Origin: Rhina ancylostomus
Lineage: Eukaryota
NCBI GenBank assembly: GCA_030265395.1
Contig: JARFYF010000063.1
Span: 76,126,163-76,190,162 of the forward strand
Reading direction: 5' to 3'
DNA: 64,000 nucleotides
Part shown: in pieces, positions 2,046-62,396 of the stretch
How positions within the stretch are numbered: position 1 is the first letter of the stretch
Layout: each line of letters begins with the position of its first letter
Notes under the pieces: model-generated
Database searches by the model: none
Told to the model about the DNA's origin: nothing
What the model saw: only the letters and a program-made list of their open reading frames with translations
Position numbers and translations under genes: made by a program

Positions 2046-2601
2046 GTTTCCTTCTCCAGAATTAAAAGTACTCCATTAAAACAAGGGGCAGGCTACCAGG
2101 CTGAAGTAGTCATTCAGTTGGTTTGGGTTAACGGCGAGCCTCCACAGCAGATAACCAGCCTAGCAGTCAATTCATCATATGGACTGTGAGTACCTGTGTC
2201 TACTGTGAGTAAAAGTCTGGTTTCCTACAACATGTTGTCCCAAGTTCATGGTATTAAAATGTGACACATTACAATGACGATTAGATTTTCTGCTTGGCTA
2301 ATTCGTATGTTAACCTTTTGTTTCATACAACAATTTTTCAGTGATAGGTGGGTGATACAACAGTTGGTTCCAAATCAAGTTACTTCCATATTCATCATGC
2401 CTGGTCCTCTGCTGTTACTATGAAGTATCAGTTTCTCTATCAGTCGATAGAATACATTCCATTGTCCTTAAATGTATGGGATATAAATACATAGTCACAT
2501 AAAACGCTGCTCAATTTTCAGGGTGGGATGCAGATTTCAGTGTTTAGGATTTATTAGCAGATTAAAGATATTGTTTAATAATGCTTTTTTTTCCTTTTTA
2601 G

Positions 2602-2753
2602 TTTGGTGTTTGGGAACTGTAATGGTATTGCAATGGTTGATTACATTCAGAAGACTGTACTTTTAAACCTGGGCACAATTGAACTCTATGGTTCGAATGA
2701 TCCTTATCAGAGACAACCAAAGTCCCCCCGCAAAACTCGACAGGCCTCAGGAG
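2602..2753 (+). CDS. STXBP5: STXBP5 (tomosyn-1) internal exon, 152 nt, end of WD40 blade / start of hypervariable region
   Basis: ttttag| acceptor and |gtaagc donor. Translates LVFGNCNGIAMVDYIQKTVLLNLGTIELYGSNDPYQRQPKSPRKTRQASG, near-identical to recalled human STXBP5 VVFGNCNGIAMVDYLQKAVLLNLGTIELYGSNDPY. Confidence 0.96.
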
Positions 2754-3699
2754 GTAAGCACCGGTGTTTTCACTTCCTTAGTTCCTGCAGGAGGTGAAGT
2801 GGATTTGATATGCTCAGTGGAAATAAGCACAGTATGTAGAAGGTGCAGTCTGTAGCGTGAAAGCATCAGTTTGGTGGCAGTGCCGTTTATGGCCATCTAT
2901 TGCAAGACAGCATGAAGTGCTGTACAACAGTTGCTACTGCTGTGAGAGGAAGGTTTTCTTCTGAAATGAGCATCATCAGTCTGCATTCAGTGAACCACTC
3001 CTTTATTATCAATCTTTAGAAATAGGATCAAACAAGCTGGCCTGTACACAGCACATTAAAAATTTCTCATGGAAAGACCCATAAATTAAAATCAATGGAC
3101 AAGGAATTAACTGAAATAGAGCAAGAGCTGAGTGTTTTTTAATCACGCAAGGGTGGCAGGACTGAATAAAATGTCCAGCCTTTTGTGTGGCAGTTTCTAA
3201 GGTTATGATGTAGCATCTGCAATCAACAAACTTTATGGGCTTAATGGTCCCTTGAGCTTTATTAGTCCATATTAATAAATAAATGCAATCTTAAAAAAAT
3301 GTTAAACATAGGGAATTATGCATAAGTGGTGGAAATGGCCTAATAAAATAACATAGAGAAAATGTAATAGCCCAAATGAGTGGCAGGTGAAATTCAGTAT
3401 AGCTATATAAAATATTACAAGCTGAAAGACAAAAAGGTTAGATGTAATGAATAACCTGCCTGGCAGAAATTTACAAAAAACAATATTTACAGGTCTGTGA
3501 GATCATAGGACTGACATGATGGAGGGAATAATCTCTCAAGGGACAAGGTAGTACAGCCCAGAATTAGCATCAGCAGCTGAGCAACAGTGCTCACCATTGA
3601 CCTCACTGAGAGCTTCCCACAAAGATCTAGCAATCTCTGGTAAGATTTTCTCCTATTTTTGATGTTGGACACCAGTTTAAGGGGATTCCTGGTGTCCAG

Positions 3700-4085
3700 T
3701 AGCTGAACAGCCAACTACGTTAAGATGTTCCAGTATAGTTGTCACACAGGCACTTATCTGGCGATGGGGAAAGTTGGTTACATATCTCCTGTTCTCAAAA
3801 AGCAGGACAATCCAACCCAACTAATTACCAGTCAGTTTATCCTCCATCATTGGCAGTGCGATGAAAAGTGTCACCAGCAGTACCATCAAGCTGCACTTGC
3901 TTATCAATAACCAGCTCACCAATGCTCAGTTTAAGTTTCACTCAGATCACTCACCTGCACATCTTGATCTTGACATGGACCAAAGAGTGACCTCCTGAGA
4001 CAAGGACAACTGCATCTGGCATATACACAGCATTTGTTGGAGTGTAATGTTGATAAATACATGGACTAAAGCAATGTAGTTCATC
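3700..4085 (+). mobile_element. LINE RT fragment (CR1/L2 group)
   Basis: FQYSCHTGTYLAMGKVGYISPVLKKQDNPT resembles the LINE RT N-terminal WKxAxVxPVxKK...NYRP segment. Confidence 0.65.
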
Positions 4086-5399
4086 AATGGGACTGAACTT
4101 CCTGAGATTCCCCAGCATACCACTAGGAAGCAGACATTGGTCCTATGCCAGGTCAGATATGGCACATGATCTGAGACCTAATTGATTAAATGGGGTCTTG
4201 GGCACAGATTTAGAAAGCAACATAAAAGGTAAGTAATTTTTAAAAAAATTATTCTGCCATATTTTACTGTTTTCAACTTTTTCTAAACTTTTTGTTTTCT
4301 CTGAGCTTGGTCATTTTCATTTTTTTTTTAATCATTTCAATTCTATTAATTTCCTAATGATTCTCAGACTTAGAAGCATTTTGGGAAAAATAAGTCTATC
4401 AAAATCATCGACACCCTTGACAGATGATAAACTTCTGCCCCAATCTTTGCTGCTCAAGGGTATTTCTGGAGTCTGTGCTTCCTGTGACCCAGTTGTCATT
4501 TGGAGGTCGCCATTGTACTCCAGGATGTGGAGAGCCATAGAGTTGGGCCCTCCTCAACTGGTGATCCATGCAGGAATGTGGGTAGTACCAGTAGCCAGCA
4601 ATTCCAAGTGGGATCAGGTCAGCACAATCTGAACTAATAAGGAATTGCACTAATTGACAACCAGAGAACAAACAGTAACATATTTAACTTTCTAAACATT
4701 ATACAAGGGTCTTCACTATATGGTTAAGGTAGAATCTAAAATGTAAATAAGGAACTTTAAAATACAACACAATTACATATGTCCATGTGGTTTGCTAACT
4801 GGCATTTATGGCTTTACTATGTCTTTTTAAAAACTTGCGTGACACGTTGTAGGGTTTGGGGGAATTTTACACTGGCAGTAGGAAATAGCATAAATTAGCA
4901 TAAGAATTTAATTGCGTAGAGAAATCTGCAAGAAATGGATCTTATGGAGGATGCTAAATCATTGACAGCAACTTGAAGATTTGCACATTAAACTAAACAT
5001 GTGGGGAAATCCCTATGTTACTACTGTCTATTTCACAGAATAATGACACCAATTGTTTTTCCATCATTACTACCACAAGCCCCAGGCCAATAGATGTAAC
5101 TGAAGCTGCAATAGAAAGTGAAATGGAACTTACTATAGATAAATATTTCACTGTAGAGGAAGAATAAACATAATGAATAAAGCATTTCACTTGATTATTG
5201 AATATACAATTTGGCTCATGTGGAGCCAAAACTCTGCAGTATCCTGTATGTCATTAGAACTTTAATACCTACATTCAATTTGAGTCACCCAAATAGACAT
5301 TGCAGAGAAGCTCTACAAAGCTAATCTTAGCCTTCGAGTTTGAAAGATTGGGACAACCTAACACAGGAAACAAGATGGAAAATATGAAAGGTAAATTAA

Positions 5400-5780
5400 G
5401 AATCGAGCATACTTTATTGTAAGTGAGGATGTTGGAGCAAGGGTCCACAAGTTAAAACTAGTGTAGACTGTTTAGCACAGATGGGAGGAAGGAATTCTTT
5501 GCAGAAAGATTGTGTAAGACATGGAATGGATTTAAGTAAANNNNNNNNNNNNNNNNNNNNNNNNNNNNNNNNNNNNNNNNNNNNNNNNNNNNNNNNNNNN
5601 NNNNNNNNNNNNNNNNNNNNNNNNNNNNNNNNNNNNNNNNGAATGGATTTAAGTAAATGAGAAACTCATTCAAGAATGGGAGTTGGGAGGGTGGACCAGG
5701 TTCAGTTAGTGGAACGGTGTTTTGGCATTTGAATTATGAGGTAGGTATAATTGCACCAAATTATTTCCATTTTTCTGTTA
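5400..5780 (+). mobile_element. CR1 3' end fragment spanning an assembly gap
   Basis: Similar to other CR1 3' ends in the window (gggtccacaagttaaaa...aggaattcttt...atggaat). Confidence 0.5.
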
Positions 5781-7396
5781 GAATGGTAGGACACTGTTTA
5801 AAGAATATTGAGAAGGAAATCTATGTTTGAGCATGCATTTCTTGATGCCAAATGTAATACTAAGCTCATTTGTTCTGTTCATAATCCACTAACTGCTCAG
5901 TATGGAAGAGTTAATGTAATTCTTGAAGTATTTTGAAAGTCAGAATTAGACAAGCCAGTAAGTGGAAATGTAGAAATATCATGTTCAAAAATGACTGTTT
6001 CAGAAATGTTTCATTTCTTTATCACTGCCTTGTTAGATGACAGAAGCAGAATAAACATCATTGAAGTCCATTGATGAGTGTTAAATTTCTGGGGATAACA
6101 TTGCATGAAATGTCAAAATAGCTTGAAATTTTATAAGATTTCAACTACAATTCCCTTTACCTTGGACTTTAGGAGACAAAAATAAACCACCTGGGCACAT
6201 TTACAAATTTCCTTCACCTTGTGGAAACATGCAACTTTATCAGACAAGCTTTTATTGTGATCTGTGCTACTCATGTAATTTTGTTCTATCCTTTGAATCT
6301 TACATTATTAATATAGTCACCCATACATTGTTATATGTTTGTGTAGCTACTTGATTAATGTTATGTATTTGTCCCATGCCATTTAATAAAGATATTTGTT
6401 GGCCACCTGTTCAAAGATGAACAGCTAATTGCTGATGCCCTTCTGTGAAAGTATTTTTGACTCTCTGGTCATTGCATGCAATTAGTCCATTAACAGCCTT
6501 GTGTGGTAGGTAAGTGCTTAGTACATATACCAGCTATCATCCCCATTAAGAGCTGCATGTTGTACTGAGGTATCACTGCCTGTCATGATAACACCAGTTA
6601 TAAATTTTAGATGAGCAGTAATGTGAGGATTGTAACCAGGTGCACGAAGCTCCATGATCCCTTCCCTCTCAGCCCTCAAGAAGGAAGCTCTTAAAATCCT
6701 GGCTCGGGAGGTCAGGGGTGGTAAAAGGGAGTCATGGTGTGTTCTGGGCATTTGCTTCTCTGATAACACCAAGTACCACAGCAAGAATATATGTAGCACC
6801 TTAACTGAGATAAGNNNNNNNNNNGTTTACTCAACATGACGCCCTTTAAGATGTATTGGTTTCTAACTTCCAAGCCTAATTTCCCTCTTCCATTAAAGGA
6901 CTCTTGGTCACTGCTAACATGGAGGGCTCTTGGAGGCAGCCATTTTTAAATGACTAAACCATAACATAATGAAATCTGCAGAACATTGTTGTTAATTTCA
7001 TTTTACTGTGACTTGCACCTTCTGTAAGTCCATAATTTAAATTATGCAGTAACTTTCTGAATCCCTGTCAGTTGGATGGATAGAAAACTAATCTGATAAT
7101 ACACCTTGTAGGCTTTTTTAATCTTAATTGTTTTAGTCCTCCAAATGTCAGCATGTTTGTGTATTCCTGTCATTTGCTCTTTTTCAGTAACATATAATTT
7201 GCTTACACATCACAAATATAGCATTGAGGTCAGAAAAGGGTCATGAGAAATAGCTCCTAGTGATGTCTGATTTTACTTTCCCATCTTTGTAAAGATTGCA
7301 TTATCTTTTGATATGTTCTAAGTTTTGTTCTGCAGGTTATTACAGCCAAAAGACTATTTTGGTGTTGTGCTCTTTCTTTTCCCATTGCATCCTAAG

Positions 7397-7480
7397 GCAT
7401 GCTGACGGTGACTTCTTGCATGTGTGGTCTTTCTAGTTTGTATTCTGAGTCTGTGAAAAGACTTCGTTCTTCATATCTAA
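7397..7480 (+). CDS. STXBP5: Candidate cassette exon (84 nt, phase 1-1), similar to a tomosyn-2 HVR exon
   Basis: Pyrimidine tract tctttcttttcccattgcatcctaag| and consensus donor |gtaagt. Open in the frame of the flanking exons: (G)MLTVTSCMCGLSSLYSESVKRLRSSYL(S), similar to recalled STXBP5L DNFCMRGLSNFYPDLTKRIRTSYQS. Confidence 0.75.
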
Positions 7481-9569
7481 GTAAGTTATGATGATACAAA
7501 TTTCTGTCTTGCTCTTTGCTTCTGATGTTACTATAGATAGCATAAGCCATTGAAATCAGTGCAACCTGCATATCCCCTTTTTTATAACAACTCATAGGGT
7601 GAGTTGTAAAGAATATATTCTCTGCTTTGGTTACATGATGCCTGGAGGCACTCAAAAGTTTTTTTCAATCTCAGTTACATAAGAAGGAACTTGTAGTAAG
7701 CAGTTTTTGAGATGGGAGCTGAAGTTTTGCGAGAGAAAATTTCACTGACGAGCCAAACGCAGTTAACAGGCCACATTGCACCTGGTCTCTGCCTCCCCAC
7801 CCCCATACCAGCTCTGTGTACACTACAGTTATCCAGTAGCTCTGTATGGGGCTGCCAGCTAGCAATCAGCATGTTCTCTCCTAATGTTTTGTTTGGGCTT
7901 GTTGGTCATTATCATCAACCAAATGGGGATATCAGTTCATTAATCTGTAACAACTCAGAACAATAATCAAATCTGTCATTATCAGTGAAGCCCCAATACA
8001 GTGCCCACCCTCAACAGAGTATCAAAAGTCATTAAATAGCTGCTGAAATTCGCATACTAAAGTACTAACAGGGTGCATTGTGGCAGGTTTTTCTGCAATG
8101 AAGGGGAATGCTTCATAGCTCATGACATTCCTTTGATTCTATGGAAATTGAACCAGAGCAGGTCTGATGCTAGAGTCCAAATTGGAAATGGTGATAACTA
8201 AAGTCTCTTAACATTTTGTCATGCCTTTTCCCATGATCAGAAGGATGGTCATTTGGTCAGTTTTTGAGTCATCCATTCGGAAAGACACAGCAGTTCCCCT
8301 TAAATGATTTCAGAATTTTCACCTTCATGATCTGTCTGATGATCATGTACTGACTGCTTTTGTGAAGAGCTGTATATGAATCCTAGATTTTCCTTTTGAT
8401 TTAAATCCATCCTCTGTTCATAATATTAAAGAAAGGATAGTATTCCAGATGAAGTCCATCCCAGAAACTAGCCAAAAAGTGAAGAATAGCAGTGAGAAAT
8501 TGGAATCATTACTGTCCATTTTTGATATGCTATGGGTATCCCCAGAGCTCCAGAAAAAGGCATGCATGGCATATTTGTGGGGAGTATCACTCTGAGATCA
8601 GTGGTTTAAGTGCAGAGGATGCCTGCCAGAAGTATGCAGATCAGACATCACGAAATCAGTCAGCATGCAATGCTGTTTAGATACTAGCACACCTTTATAT
8701 TTTGGAGCTCACCACTGCAGCCAGCAGGTTCCCTCACATGGCTTAATGTGCATTCATCAACTGGAAGGACCCACCCCAGTGATGTACAATTTAGTTGCTG
8801 GTTGATTTCTTCTGTCTCTTGCTTTGATTCTACATGTAGCCGGTAATTTCTAGAGTTTATTTCAAGTTGAGAAATTATGGGTGGTAGCTGTTGAAGGAGT
8901 TTTGTTGATTTCAAAGCTTCTGAATAAACTAGTTGGTACGTCACACAGGTACACCAGAAGGCACCGCATTTGAGTGCAACATAAACAGTGTGTCCACAGA
9001 AACATAAGAAGGAGAAGAGTTCTCAAAAGGAGACTGTATTTGCCCAGTGTGTTAAATAAGCATTTCTCCCACAACCTCATGTAGAATGTGTAGCATCTGT
9101 GCTTCACTAATCTCCTCACTGAGACCTATGATAGCTAGCCAATCAAAGATCTTGTGGTGAGAGGCTGACAGGGTAATGAGGGAATTAAGGTTTGGTCTGT
9201 CTCCTTCCAGTATGGAAAGATTTGTGTCAGTTCAGAGTTTACCACTCTCACCACAGTTATATAGGACAAATCTCTAAGGCTTGTTACTCCAAGAGCTGGC
9301 TACATTTCATTCTTCCTTCCACCTGTCATTGATCTTGTCCCCATCCACATCGCCACAATGCAGAATGAAAGGCTACCACAAAACAAACATTCTAGTCTAA
9401 ATTTACAAATGAGATCATGCCATTTTATATTTAAGAATTAACTAATCACCTTGGCCCACGTGCCTTTCCTTCCTGTGTTCTTTGCTTGTCCCTACTGATT
9501 TAACACGGTACTATCACAATGGCCGCACTGCCTGGTGGAAGGCTGTTGACGACTTTTGGAGGAGATTTA

Positions 9570-9725
9570 AAACCATAGAACAATATGGCACAATGCAGGC
9601 CCTTCGGCCCGCCATGTTGTACCGCCCATCAGTCCACACCTCACACTATCTAACCCTTTCCTCGCACATATCCCTCTACCCCACATTCCTCCATATGCCT
9701 ATCCAACAATCTCTTGAACAGGTTT
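9570..9725 (-). mobile_element. CR1/HER1-type 3' tail, antisense
   Basis: accatagaacaatatggcacaatgcaggcccttcggccc is the reverse complement of the tail at 16980-17020. Confidence 0.75.
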
Positions 9726-10599
9726 AAGACAGGTTTTGAAGCTAACCTCAAAGCTCTGGACACACATGGCTTGCCTATCTACTGCACTGCCTTGGCAGGG
9801 GTGACACCAGTCTGGACTAGGTGGCTGACAGATGACAGGGAGGGCATCCCTGCGTGATATGTGTGGGAGGGCATGTATGTTCCGAAGAGAGGACAATGTG
9901 TTCATGTTCTATGGAACCACTACCAAAGCAGTCTTCCACATAAATATTGTTGGAATTCCTGGACTGCTGTCACTTTCAATTCCCTTTGCGTATTAAAAAT
10001 CCACAGCATTGATGGCAGGAGGTTGAACTTCCATCACAGCAAGCTGACATTGCTTGACAGTTACCTGAGTTTCCACGATGGTACTCGGACATTGAGTGGA
10101 TGTTGCAATTAGTTGGGTTTGCCATTGAGCATCACTTGCACACTGCAAAGGATAGGTTCTAACCTCTTATTAAAGCCCATGTTGGTGCTATATCCCACCA
10201 TGTTCCTTGACATTAAATTCAGAACATCTGGCAGGTTTTACAATGCACCAAGTATTTCATTGTGCATACCCACTGGCTTTCTTCTGTAGTATACCCCATG
10301 GAAGTCCTCATTCGAGCCCTATGCAGCAGAACTTCCACCTGACTTCACCCCCTAAAGCGATACTGCTGACCCTATCCTTGTCCCTGAACTAGGCTGCAGA
10401 CAAAGTTTGATGACTTATCAGGGACACATCCAGCCTGGATCTTTTACTCCAAATTCCCTGCAGTTTCTGTATAAAAACGAATGACAGCATTTGTAAAAAT
10501 CAGTGTGCTCCTTCTTTGTGAATGTCTTTTTGTTCACCCACTGCCAAACCAGTAAACTTCAACTAAAAATTATCTCTGCCTGTGTTACAATCATAATAT

Positions 10600-11310
10600 T
10601 ATTAGGATGTACAAAACAGGAGCAGTAGTCCAGTTAGCTCCTCAAATGCACTTCACCATTTAATAAGGTCATGGCTGATCCAAACTTGTGCGTAACACAA
10701 CTTTCTTATTTTCTCCCCATACCCTTTGATTCCCTTCCAATTTAAACGTCTGTCACTCCTTGAAGATATTCAGTGACTCTGCCTCTATAGCTCTTTGGAA
10801 TAGAGAATTTCAAAGATTAATGACCCTCTGAGAGGGGAAAAAAATTCCCTCATCATCTCTGTCTGAAATGGGTGACTCCCTTATCCAAAAGTTGTGCCCC
10901 CATACTTGTAGACAGCCCTTCTAGAGAAACATCCACTCTGCATGCATCCCATAGAGCTTTATTTCCATAAGATCACCACTCAATGGAGTAAAGAAGAATG
11001 AGAGTAGGCTCAACATTTCATTTGTCAAATCCTTGTCCCAGGAATCAACCTAGTGACCCTCCTGATGAAAACAGATTCCTCCTTAAATATAGAAACCAAA
11101 ACTATAGGTTGTACTCCAGTTGTGGTCTTATCAATGCCCTTTAAAATTGCATCAAAATTTCCCTGATTTGATGTTGCTTAACCCTTGCAGTTAAACCAAT
11201 ATTCCATTAGCCTTAATTACTTGCTGTAGCTGCATGCTTTTTAAATCTTTCTGTACAAGGACCCCTAAATCCCTTTGTACTAACACATTTTGTGGTCTCA
11301 TTCTGTTTAA
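10600..11310 (-). mobile_element. CR1 3' region, antisense
   Basis: Reverse complement of the typical CR1 RT end/3' UTR (aacaggagcag..., atacccttgattccc, gtactccagttgtggtct). Confidence 0.75.
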
Positions 11311-12177
11311 TAAAATGCAATTAAGTTGAAGAGTAGGATGAATATTTGACTTCAAGAAATAAAATTACCATTCAATGGTAATTAATTGGGTTTTGGAGTT
11401 TCAAGGATCATATAGCCCAGACTGTCACCTCAGTTATCCTATAATGTATCCTCATATAGTTTCCTGACCATAGAGTGGTGTACATGCACAATATACAATT
11501 TTGCACATCACCCATGTAAGTTTCAGAAGATTTAACGTTCTGGAGAAATTGTTTCCAATGGAAAACTTAACCACACAAAGAGACTTTGAAGGAAATATAA
11601 CAAAGAGATGGACTTGTTCATGTCAGTGCTTTGGAAGATTGGGATTGAAAGGGGGAGTTGATGTCTAGAAGACTGCCATTTGGGCCATCTCACAAAATAC
11701 ATTTAACACTCTCAACAATAGTTGTGCTTTAGATAGATTAACAGGTAATGCTCTCTGTTAGTCAGACTTCAGAGAAGGGAAACTAAGATATTTTACTTCA
11801 GTATTTGTAGGATATTTGCCCCAAGGGACTTGAGTGACATGTTCAAGAGATGTAATGGGCATACTTCAAACTTCTCTGGACTCCTTCCACCTTGGATCAA
11901 TGCGTTTCATAAATGTTGTGTGAAGATCCATAGATACCCCATTCTCATTATACTGGAATAAAGTTTTTCTTTGTTCCCCAAATACTTTCCATAGTAATTT
12001 CAGCTTCATTTTTCTTAAATAGTTGCTTCTGTCCATTTTTGCGTGGATATATCTCTTTGAAACATTTTGGGATGGTTTTTCTGCATTAAAGACACTAAAT
12101 ATTAATTACCTACTTATAACTAGAAGCTGTCCGTTATCAGCATCACTAAGTAATAACAAGTTGATTTTCTTTGCTAG

Positions 12178-12240
12178 GTCTCTGTGATATCAATGAAAGT
12201 TCCACAGCTCTGGATGACCGTTGCAAGTCTCCCACATCAG
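12178..12240 (+). CDS. STXBP5: STXBP5 HVR exon, 63 nt
   Basis: ttgctag| and |gtaagt. Translates GLCDINESSTALDDRCKSPTS (recalled human GLCDISEGTVVPEDRCKSPTS). Confidence 0.93.
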
Positions 12241-23575: not shown

Positions 23576-23635
23576 GTTCTGCCTCTTCGTGCAATTCTGA
23601 AGATGAACAGAAATTGCCTAACTTTATAGAAAAGG
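23576..23635 (+). CDS. STXBP5: STXBP5 HVR cassette exon, 60 nt (first half of the b-tomosyn insert)
   Basis: tgtgtag| and |gtatag. Translates GSASSCNSEDEQKLPNFIEK (recalled human GSSSPHNSDDEQKMNNFIEK). Confidence 0.92.
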
Positions 23636-23729: not shown

Positions 23730-23777
23730 TGAAAAACAAAAGCAGAAAATTTTCCAAGACCGTAGTATCTGACATAG
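23730..23777 (+). CDS. STXBP5: STXBP5 HVR cassette exon, 48 nt (second half of the b-tomosyn insert)
   Basis: tttctag| and |gtatga. Translates VKNKSRKFSKTVVSDI (recalled human VKTKSRKFSKMVANDI). Confidence 0.92.
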
Positions 23778-39887: not shown

Positions 39888-39938
39888 CGAAGATGTCAAG
39901 AAAACTAAGCTTGCCAACTGAACTGAAGCCTGATTTGG
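39888..39938 (+). CDS. STXBP5: STXBP5 HVR cassette exon, 51 nt (segment absent from s-tomosyn; PKA RKLS and SUMO LKPD motifs)
   Basis: CTAAC branch-like motif at 39861, ctttcag| and |gtgagt. Translates AKMSRKLSLPTELKPDL (recalled human AKMSRKLSLPTDLKPDL). Confidence 0.95.
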
Positions 39939-47215: not shown

Positions 47216-49422
47216 AAACAATTAGTTATATAAAATCATTTTAGCAATAGCCATTTGACATGGTGTGGCAGTCGCAGTAAAACAGGGATTGGCGATGCAG
47301 TTCAGTGGTGGTTATAACTGCAGGATACAAATGTCATTTGATGGCGGTGTAACGGCAGGGTAACAATGTGGTATGACAGTGATGATATAACTGCAGGGTG
47401 ACAATATAGTGTGGCGGAGGAGGTGCACCTGCAAGTTGGTGGTATTTGACGGTTGTATAAATGTAGTTGACAATAGTGACCTAACTAGGGAAAGAACTAG
47501 TTTGACAGTTGCTTATTTTTCTCTTGTCTGTGGGACTTTATCAGTGAAAACTACCATATATGTCCTTAAATATGATATTTCTTTTCATTGTTTTGGAGGG
47601 AAAAGGGCTTTTTTGTTTGAAAAGATATAGGACTAATTCCTATTCTCACTCTCTGCCAATGATAGAGCTTGGATTTGGGTCAAAGAACAGAAACCAATGC
47701 CTTAATCATCACCTGGAAAAAACAAAGCTGTTTAAAAACAATGTTTGGAGTATGACTTCTCTGTATATGCATTTCACTAGTAAGACTTCTCTGAAAAACT
47801 TGGTAATAGGTCTAAGGCATTGAATCAATCCTTGATTAACATGCATGTACATCTTGGATGTTAATTTTCTATCACTAATGGATCTTTTCTGCAAAATTAA
47901 TTTCCAATTATCTGTCATTGAGTTAAGATTCATTTAAACTTCTGCCATTAGGTTTCTGGTGTGCTGAAAAAATCAATGAAATTAAGCATAATTTCTCATC
48001 TAGAATGTGTACTGGAATTATGCACATTGTACATCCAAATGTCTTTTTGGAAGGAGGTGCTTCATACACAGTCAGATCTCTCTAATCCATATTCGACAGC
48101 AGGGACCTCTTGCAATTTCCATTACCAAATTACACCTCATTTTTTTCTTTCTTAACCCGTGCAAATTATACTTCTCAGTCTAGATTTGTGTTCAGTGGCT
48201 GTAATTTCAGGGCTTTCTGAATCCATGCACAGATAGGTTGGAGAGGGATTCAGCAGTTTGCAATGACCAAAACTCAGGGGCTTGGTACCATGCAGAAGCA
48301 AACCTTTACACACACTTGGGGACAGAGGTCCAATTAGATTTCTTCTTGTAGAAGAGGCTATGCACAGTAAAATCTGTGACCGTCAGGGCTTGGTAATGGT
48401 TCAGGATCCATGCTCTCCAAGTATATGCTGTTGCTTTAGTGAGAGGCCTTTCTTAAATGTTTAATTAAAGCAACATTTTTTTTTAACTTCAATTAAAATT
48501 GAAGTAATGTAATAAAATCTGATGAACTGGTTTCAGAAACTGTAACCATGCAACTTCTGGATTGTCAGAATAACCCAATAAGTTTGCTGATGTCAGGTTT
48601 CCTTCTCTGAAGGACATCTGTACCTGGTCTGACATATGTAAGAATTTAGAGCAACCAATGTCATGGATTCTTATCTGTCTCCTCTGTTTGGAAGCATCAG
48701 GATGGATAATAAATACCACCCTTGACAGTGATGTCTACATCTTTTGAATAGATAATAAAGAATGGAAAGTCACTGTTGACTGACATTGAGTGCTTGTGAG
48801 ATGTATCCCAATCAAGTTATTTAGAACATCTACTTCAAGATTAGAGAAATGCCCCACCGCTTGCAAATGATTCAAAGAAGCTACTTTGGTGCAATCTTTA
48901 ACCCCGATCTATTGAATCCCAGGGATCCAAATACAGGCAAATACACTCCAGACACCAGCATGACTTGGTTTAACCCTTAAAACTAACATTGCCAAGGAAG
49001 ATCATGAATTAATTTATTGATCCTCCAGTAGGTAAAGTGCATATTTATAAAATAAATATGCAGCGGCTCAAAATTCACAGAGAAAGACAAAAGCACATCA
49101 AATGCAGGAATGCTGGGGACTTTGAAGATGAGGAGCAGAATTTCTAATAAATTATTTTACTTGACATTAAGACCAAATTTGTATTCCACTTGTCTATATT
49201 TACTGCCATCACATTTTCCCAACACATCTGGATTAACAGATCTGACTGTTAAACTTTTATGTCAACAAATCAACCAAATGAAAGTGGTTTATAATATAAA
49301 ATTGCATTATGAAAGTTCAGATATGGACAGATAATGCCTCGATAATTTTAACTGATTATATCCTGAATTTTCTTCTGTTCTGTATCAATCATGGCTTTTC
49401 ATTTCTCCTATTTCAAAATTAG

Positions 49423-49662
49423 ATGTGAGAGACAACTCTTTCAGCCGTTCCCGCAGTTCCAGTGTTACCAGCATTGACAAGGAATCCCGAGAGGCCATCA
49501 CTGCTCTTCATTTCTCTGAGACTTATACCCGAAAGGCAGATACATGCACCTCACCATGTTTGTGGGTTGGGACAACACTTGGCACAGTATTGGTCATAGT
49601 ACTGAATCTGCCACCCGGAGGAGATCAAAGACTTACCCAGCCAGTCATTGTGTCTCCAAGTG
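49423..49662 (+). CDS. STXBP5: STXBP5 exon, 240 nt
   Basis: aattag| and |gtaaga. Translates DVRDNSFSRSRSSSVTSIDKESREAITALHFSETYTRK...PCLWVGTTLGTVLVIVLNLPPGGDQRLTQPVIVSPS; residues fit STXBP5 rather than STXBP5L. Confidence 0.97.
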
Positions 49663-62230: not shown

Positions 62231-62396
62231 CTTGCCAAGTCTTAGGCCACTACTGGATGTCAATTATTTGCCGCTGACCGATATGCGAATAGCTCGTACC
62301 TTCTGTTTCACCAATAACGGGCAAGCTCTATATCTGGTTTCCCCCACTGAGATCCAACGCATCACCTACAGTCAGGGAACATGTGAGAATTTACAG
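62231..62396 (+). CDS. STXBP5: STXBP5 exon, 166 nt (not in the ORF track)
   Basis: ttttgaag| (AAG acceptor) and |gtaaga. Translates SLPSLRPLLDVNYLPLTDMRIARTFCFTNNGQALYLVSPTEIQRITYSQGTCENLQ, in phase with the previous exon. Confidence 0.96.

Follow-up and report, generated by a model that had tools for sequence, protein, structure and literature searches.

An 84-nt frame-preserving cassette exon of STXBP5 in the ray Rhina ancylostomus, found from chimaera to mammals, homologous to a tomosyn-2 cassette and likely included in retina

The STXBP5 locus and its 84-nt exon

The stretch of DNA analyzed here (64,000 nt of the genome of the batoid ray Rhina ancylostomus; herein the window) carries exons of STXBP5, the gene for tomosyn-1. 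Searching it by tblastn with shark and ray proteins located eleven STXBP5 exons, the 84-nt exon studied here among them:

2060-2185 (+): 126-nt exon, the earliest STXBP5 exon located here
2602-2753 (+): upstream exon, 152 nt, ending ...RQASG
7397-7480 (+): 84-nt frame-preserving cassette exon, adding 28 residues in the hypervariable loop
12178-12240 (+): downstream exon, 63 nt, LCDINE...SPTS
23576-23635 (+): 60-nt cassette of the hypervariable region, coding the first half of the b-type insert
23730-23777 (+): 48-nt cassette of the hypervariable region, coding the second half of the b-type insert
39888-39938 (+): 51-nt cassette with an RKLS motif (m/b-type exon)
47666-47779 (+): 114-nt additional cassette, known from shark and skate predicted isoforms
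49423-49662 (+): 240-nt exon, closing the hypervariable loop
51237-51606 (+): 370-nt STXBP5 exon
62231-62396 (+): 166-nt STXBP5 exon

The 240-nt exon matches STXBP5 from Mobula, Narcine and Rhinoraja best (99%). In a tomosyn tree of 32 rows and 239 columns, the ray locus clusters with five batoid STXBP5 sequences (97/90) and away from STXBP5L (branch 100/99); the gene is thus tomosyn-1 of a ray or a relative of rays.

The 84-nt exon lies within a 9.4-kb intron (2754-12177) and is preceded by a pyrimidine tract and an AAG that closes at 7396; its donor is GTAAGT. The upstream exon ends at 2753 with a GTAAGC donor. Every junction between the exon and its neighbors is in phase 1 and the frame contains no stop, so that canonical sites, a length that is a multiple of three and matching phases together define a frame-preserving cassette. 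These letters bear out in full the description in the initial annotation (84 nt, phase 1-1, stop-free, AAG and GTAAGT), and the peptide is the one given there. Conceptual joining of the exons yields ...ASG-GMLTV...SYL-S-LCDINE, an exact match to RefSeq-predicted ray isoforms. The stop-to-stop frame around the exon is 31 codons long. As a control for chance, the host intron was filtered for segments of the form AG...GTRAG, 60 to 120 nt long, a multiple of three, open in phase 1 and preceded by at least 12 pyrimidines in 17; a single segment passes, and it is 7397-7480. Scanning the window with the exon's own peptide gives one match at E 3e-20 and the next at 0.14, a circular test that shows only that the exon is present in single copy.

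Several features of the surrounding gene were recorded alongside. The b-type insert of the ray is split over two exons of 60 and 48 nt, lengths equal to those of human HsaEX0062776 and HsaEX0062777. The 47666-47779 cassette is in frame, lies in the hypervariable region and is used with several donor choices in shark and skate predicted isoforms; an insert at its place in gar looks different, and a human 63-nt cassette (HsaEX0062778) lies farther down the gene. The ray acceptor at 12170-12178 has no tandem NAGNAG, and the shark and ray isoforms examined all read GLCD or SLCD; at the same junction, bony vertebrate STXBP5 has forms with and without one added residue (Ala or Thr). The downstream intron holds high-copy interspersed repeats at 9570-9720 and about 10460-11550, where the contig depths of one run sum to as much as about 290,000.

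Distribution of the exon and its paralog in STXBP5L

Predicted STXBP5 isoforms carry the exon in 36 species, counted by source names: 7 chondrichthyans, 4 ray-finned fishes, 2 frogs, 1 lizard, 17 birds and 5 mammals (mouse, XP_036012002.1; Arvicanthis; marmoset; sperm whale; black bear). The initial annotation had taken the exon to be retained in this lineage; with amphibian, lizard, bird and mammal STXBP5 isoforms all carrying it, that view is wrong. Among the matches listed for the search with the 240-nt exon, 11 of 120 proteins contain the 84-nt exon, as do all 23 matches to a search aimed at it. A set of 271 "STXBP5" proteins includes STXBP5L proteins caught by the same pattern and was left out as a denominator. 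The exon is absent from the 12 turtle and 3 coelacanth isoforms listed, which are samples of predicted models and are not evidence of loss.

The 53 exon-bearing proteins reduce to 17 distinct peptides; in a few UniRef/GenBank models the exon is misjoined on one side. The peptide is identical in Mobula, Hypanus, Hemitrygon and Scyliorhinus and has one change in Narcine and Callorhinchus, and the RefSeq-predicted STXBP5 models of rays, catshark and chimaera (XP_072121747.1, XP_059842342.1, XP_038661079.1, XP_042189521.1) differ from it in nothing of substance. At greater distance, 21/27 residues are identical between ray and mouse and 22/27 between ray and crow, and 10 of 27 positions are invariant over the 17 distinct peptides. 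For the same ray and mouse pair, the long flanking exons are identical at 39/48 and 62/76 positions and the next exon at 13/20. By these alignments, conservation of the exon from ray to mouse is comparable with that of the long flanking exons and above that of the next exon.

A metagenome scan returned 284 pattern matches, two of which were confirmed as fish-like genomic contigs (L001 and L002); their exon sequences are identical, so they count as one data point. This orthologous exon is also 84 nt long, with an AAG acceptor and a GTAAGT donor, and shares 60/84 nt with the ray exon; the differences fall 4, 6 and 13 at first, second and third codon positions, respectively. A full-library HMMER search with the 31-residue frame gave five matches, all set aside: two are unrelated repeat proteins, and three (P0123-P0125) are read-through ORFs across a bird-type exon and its introns, artefacts of prokaryote-style gene calling on public contigs. 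Contigs of a sequencing run from another organism (X2) cover the intronic flanks within 7167-7665 with 15 differences in 273 bases and 24 in 213; set against much uncovered intron, this is a weak hint that the flanks are conserved.

STXBP5L has a matching optional segment at the same position from shark to mammal, present in 61 of 83 proteins and skipped in 22. A hidden Markov model (HMM) built from the STXBP5 exon peptides places its best domain on the matching segment in 63/63 proteins that have one, at 10.6 to 27.8 bits and with two lamprey proteins included, and scores the 22 STXBP5L proteins that lack the segment at or below -2.2 bits. For each of five test peptides, none of 2000 shuffles reached the real score. 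In lamprey, one Petromyzon tomosyn gene has a related segment in 3/3 isoforms and the other gene in 0/16. The proposed homology to the STXBP5L cassette therefore stands on identical position and significant similarity, which extends, at the protein level, beyond jawed vertebrates to lamprey. Since the segment is shared with STXBP5L and with one lamprey tomosyn, the exon predates the split of the two genes, in agreement with the initial annotation; that it is both real and ancestral is almost certain. The ray copy takes it back to the base of the jawed vertebrates; with the matches in tomosyn-2 and lamprey, its origin becomes older still.

In a primate STXBP5L protein of 1186 residues (P0334), the arginine of CMRG (residues 707-709 being the CMR) falls at position 709, where STXBP5 has cysteine. 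Human STXBP5L carries a UniProt methylarginine annotation at R709. An "exon 22/23" of Stxbp5l is described as a SLM2/Sam68 target in the literature.

Inclusion, the encoded loop and splicing control

Four of eight listed sequencing runs were compared with the window, among them two of other organisms (X1 and X2), taken as RNA by guess. In X2, a 3589-nt contig of depth 113 contains the joints 2185-2602 and 2753-12178, i.e., the skipping form; neither inclusion joint (2753-7397 or 7480-12178) is among the joints listed for these relatives' runs. Shorter, low-depth contigs of both runs continue unspliced through exon-intron borders, as DNA or pre-mRNA would, and so say nothing about inclusion.

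Tissue use was taken from published tables, whose rows were matched to the ray exon by gene, length and order and not by sequence. In Dataset S1 of PMC9303857, an 84-nt STXBP5 exon is among 116 human retina-enriched long exons and is on the mouse list too, with percent spliced in (PSI) values of 17.2 in retina, 1.5 in other tissues and 0.18 in neural samples for human, and 41.3, 1.2 and 1.9, respectively, for mouse. By these tables the human and mouse exons belong to the RetLONG class, with retina PSI well above neural and other values; the general neural inclusion suggested initially does not agree with neural values of 0.18 and 1.9. The human and mouse 84-nt events lie at hg38 chr6:147328699-147328782 and mm10 chr10:9796938-9797021, respectively. 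A third "stxbp5" row in the same dataset may be chicken, zebrafish or Stxbp5l, and the main text of PMC9303857 does not name STXBP5. Transcripts of the gene are reported to be more abundant in rods, in cones and in cone bipolar cells than they are in brain (PMC11536687), and Dataset S9 of PMC5989265 (Zhang-lab) lists an 84-nt Stxbp5 cassette preceding a 66-nt exon and assigns it no developmental module. Orthologs thus have both skipped and included forms, to judge from the X2 skip joint, the annotated forms and the human and mouse PSI. By analogy with these mammals, retina rather than brain is the tissue where use of the exon is expected; the ray exon is probably retina-enriched in turn, with skipping likely in most tissues of the ray and inclusion likely in its retina.

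The exon might instead be retained chiefly for RNA-level reasons or as a near-neutral leak, the included protein having no distinct job. Inclusion of about 1-2% outside retina (PMC9303857) fits this, as do the dominance of the skipping form in the one informative contig and the fact that no functional paper was found. Its frame and length, however, have been kept over about 450 million years, with change concentrated at third codon positions (13 vs. 4 and 6), and its motif is common to the paralog. Together with inclusion of 17-41% in whole retina, according to the PMC9303857 tables, these points leave a leak improbable.

At the protein level, the 17 distinct peptides have K20, R23 and S25 invariant, and two exon serines are invariant. 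The insert would join 28 residues with Cys-Met-Cys and K-x-x-R-x-S motifs to a surface loop bearing sites for protein kinase A (PKA) and SUMO. In this loop of tomosyn-1, the PKA site S724 reduces syntaxin binding (PMC2171531) and K730 is a SUMO site in loop 2 (PMC5529015); a review further suggests that STXBP5 in rods, cones and cone bipolar cells may be a decoy SNARE acting on syntaxin-3B (PMC11536687). The insert could offer a handle for phosphorylation or lipidation, and so tune the decoy-SNARE brake of ribbon synapses. We regard this function as doubtful. The second Cys is Ser in the fish-like ortholog and Arg in STXBP5L, and deletion of loop 2 left vesicle targeting unblocked (PMC5529015). 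A search of the literature with the exon's peptide motifs found no papers, and it found neither phosphorylation evidence for the basic serine motif nor protein-level evidence for the isoform. Two further candidates were rejected: an amphipathic membrane helix, for which 15-27% of shuffles score as high in 4/4 STXBP5 peptides of net charge +2, and a match to the membrane peptide of Semliki Forest virus nsP1 (E 0.081), a chance similarity.

A related proposal makes the exon the vertebrate tomosyn counterpart of the P-site in loop (10-11) of Lgl, a basic membrane binder freed by aPKC/PKC, here made optional through splicing. By flanking alignments to LLGL1/2, the loop that holds the exon follows the same strand of the propeller; phmmer with an exon-bearing ray protein pairs the exon with the P-site of LLGL1, flanked by the same strands in both. 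PMC11996676 places S655/S659/S663 in this membrane-binding loop, and two serines of the exon are invariant. Against this, the exon is neither polybasic nor detectably similar to Lgl. A profile built from the exon alone retrieves no Lgl chain at E ≤ 10 from 177,635 PDB sequences, a 43-sequence profile leaves the loop unaligned, the STXBP5 peptides have a net charge of +2 and no significant amphipathic moment, and the spacing of the motif halves is altered in shark STXBP5L and lamprey. An Lgl-type phospho-switch is accordingly a poor candidate, with little chance of being correct.

The elements in and around the exon that bear on its splicing are as follows:

7360-7396 (+): polypyrimidine tract and AAG acceptor, with TGC at about -11 (not above background)
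7417-7422 (+): exonic TGCATG, which codes the invariant Cys-Met and reads as the RBFOX core motif; same position in L001 (1513-1518)
7481-7486 (+): GTAAGT donor, identical in L001/L002
7534-7540 (+): pair of neighboring TAG trimers at +54 and +58 of the downstream intron, which may be Musashi sites

The Cys-Met pair is invariant in both paralogs and in lamprey and is coded as TGCATG in both DNA sequences compared. Given the RBFOX core motif GCATG (PMC9303857 methods), the same letters may possibly double as an RBFOX-type site, an overlap for which the Cys-Met codons alone could account. The TAG trimers were considered as a candidate Musashi UAG cluster: three occur per 150 nt in the ray against 2.0 expected, a count not clearly above background, none lies within 140 nt in L001/L002, and MSI1 expression gives changes in PSI (dPSI) of -0.8 and 0 for the human ortholog (PMC9303857 Dataset S6). 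High MSI1 together with PTBP1 loss is often required for Musashi exons, according to PMC6952364. The same tables of PMC9303857 that give the retinal enrichment thus give no response to SRRM3/4 or to MSI1 alone.

Retinal use could be explained by relief from repression. A weak AAG acceptor, together with repressors (RBFOX on the exonic UGCAUG, NOVA, PTBP), would exclude the exon outside retina, and photoreceptors, poor in RBFOX and NOVA, would permit its inclusion. PMC9303857 proposes Nova, Rbfox and Elavl, scarce in photoreceptors, as repressors of retina microexons in other neurons, and a cortical network in PMC12358039 has a correlative edge between Nova1 and the 84-nt Stxbp5 event. Dataset S9 of PMC5989265, however, classes the 84-nt event as a non-target for each of Rbfox, Nova, Ptbp and Mbnl, the edge to Nova1 is a correlation, and TGCATG comes from two DNA sequences and perhaps from Cys-Met codons alone. 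We hold this model tentatively, as somewhat less probable than its opposite.

The initial annotation had likened a UGC just before the acceptor to the SRRM4 neural-exon enhancer. The TGC is indeed present in the ray at about -11, but it is missing in L001/L002, and across the window 22% of AG sites have a TGC at -20 to -4, as do 2/6 other acceptors checked. In Dataset S6 of PMC9303857, the human ortholog responds to SRRM3 with a dPSI of 0.69 and to SRRM4 with 0.74-2.49 in seven experiments. These small responses, and a TGC at background rate and absent in L001/L002, argue against control by SRRM4. Nor does the exon belong with the SRRM3/4 neural microexons: it is 84 nt long where these measure 3-27 nt, and its mammalian ortholog lacks their induction (dPSI 0.69-2.49 in 8/8 experiments) and their neuronal inclusion. 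The dPSI values come from cell lines with overexpression; in zebrafish, inclusion of the retina-enriched long exons as a group drops in srrm3 mutants (PMC9303857). A version in which the exon is confined to this fish lineage and SRRM4, acting through the UGC, turns it on in neurons keeps in its favor the ancestral origin, the TGC itself and bird read-through ORFs compatible with a TGC there (no DNA was at hand for these), but it is already contradicted for mammals by the isoforms and the dPSI, and the exon in five mammals and 17 birds, the neural PSI of 0.18 and 1.9, and a length far beyond microexon size make it scarcely credible.

Overall reading and relation to known forms

The reading we prefer, and consider quite probable, is of an 84-nt frame-preserving optional exon of STXBP5, found from chimaera to mammals, homologous to the tomosyn-2 cassette and likely included in ray retina. 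The exon, its conservation, its paralogy and the annotated forms with and without it were read directly from sequences and models. A more far-reaching version would have one ancestral cassette whose use was split after the duplication, tomosyn-2 using it in brain neurons and tomosyn-1 in retina only; Cys-Met-Cys and the basic serine motif, in the loop of the Lgl phospho-switch, would make a switchable membrane tether for an anchorless decoy SNARE at the ribbon synapse, and the Cys-Met codons would double as a silencing RBFOX site. We consider this combination improbable as a whole.

The claim of novelty fails. Annotation elsewhere had been preset as its test, and VastDB, the Zhang-lab cassette database and predicted RefSeq isoforms already contain the exon. 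A search of mainly open-access literature found no study of what the isoform does, and the available supplements of PMC5630039 and PMC4387716 gave no match. The seven-isoform scheme, with three forms of tomosyn-1, does not mention this exon in the accessible parts of PMC3188574 and PMC5529015. The exon is thus known and its isoform unstudied; what is new is a small point, namely that a tomosyn-1 exon enriched in retina and a tomosyn-2 exon used brain-wide share a common origin. Its value for annotation is small, as RefSeq models and splicing atlases already include the exon. Its wider importance is modest: the three-form count of tomosyn-1 omits an exon as conserved as its constitutive neighbors and included, by the PMC9303857 tables, at 17-41% in whole retina, a tissue with high STXBP5 expression at its ribbon synapses. 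The two genes also offer a clean paralog pair for asking how a shared exon came into use throughout the brain in one of them and in the retina alone in the other.

Among known forms, the nearest are the STXBP5 entries HsaEX0062768 and MmuEX0045646 of VastDB, which like the ray exon are 84 nt long and lie upstream of a 60-nt cassette, and mouse XP_036012002.1, with a 28-residue insert at the ray exon's junction (21/27 identical). They differ in the kind of evidence, retina use coming from the human and mouse tables and the ray exon from genomic sequence. The classical s, m and b forms of tomosyn-1 and s, m, b and xb forms of tomosyn-2 arise in the same hypervariable region, and the ray window has the 60-, 48- and 51-nt cassettes too. 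The 72-nt cassette of STXBP5L (in mouse, event CA-207227-199390-201236-201308-213596) is likewise optional, lies between homologous flanking exons and has the CMxGL and K-x-x-R-x-SY motifs; it differs in encoding 24 residues rather than 28, in having Arg at the site of the second Cys of STXBP5, and in its use, with a cortical PSI of 0.45 in glutamatergic and 0.25 in GABAergic neurons (matched by length and order), whereas brain almost entirely skips the STXBP5 exon. The P-site of LLGL1/2 occupies the same loop of a double β-propeller and has a loose Ser-hydrophobic-basic-basic-hydrophobic-Arg-x-Ser likeness to the exon, which, in contrast, is far less basic, optional and undetected by profile search.
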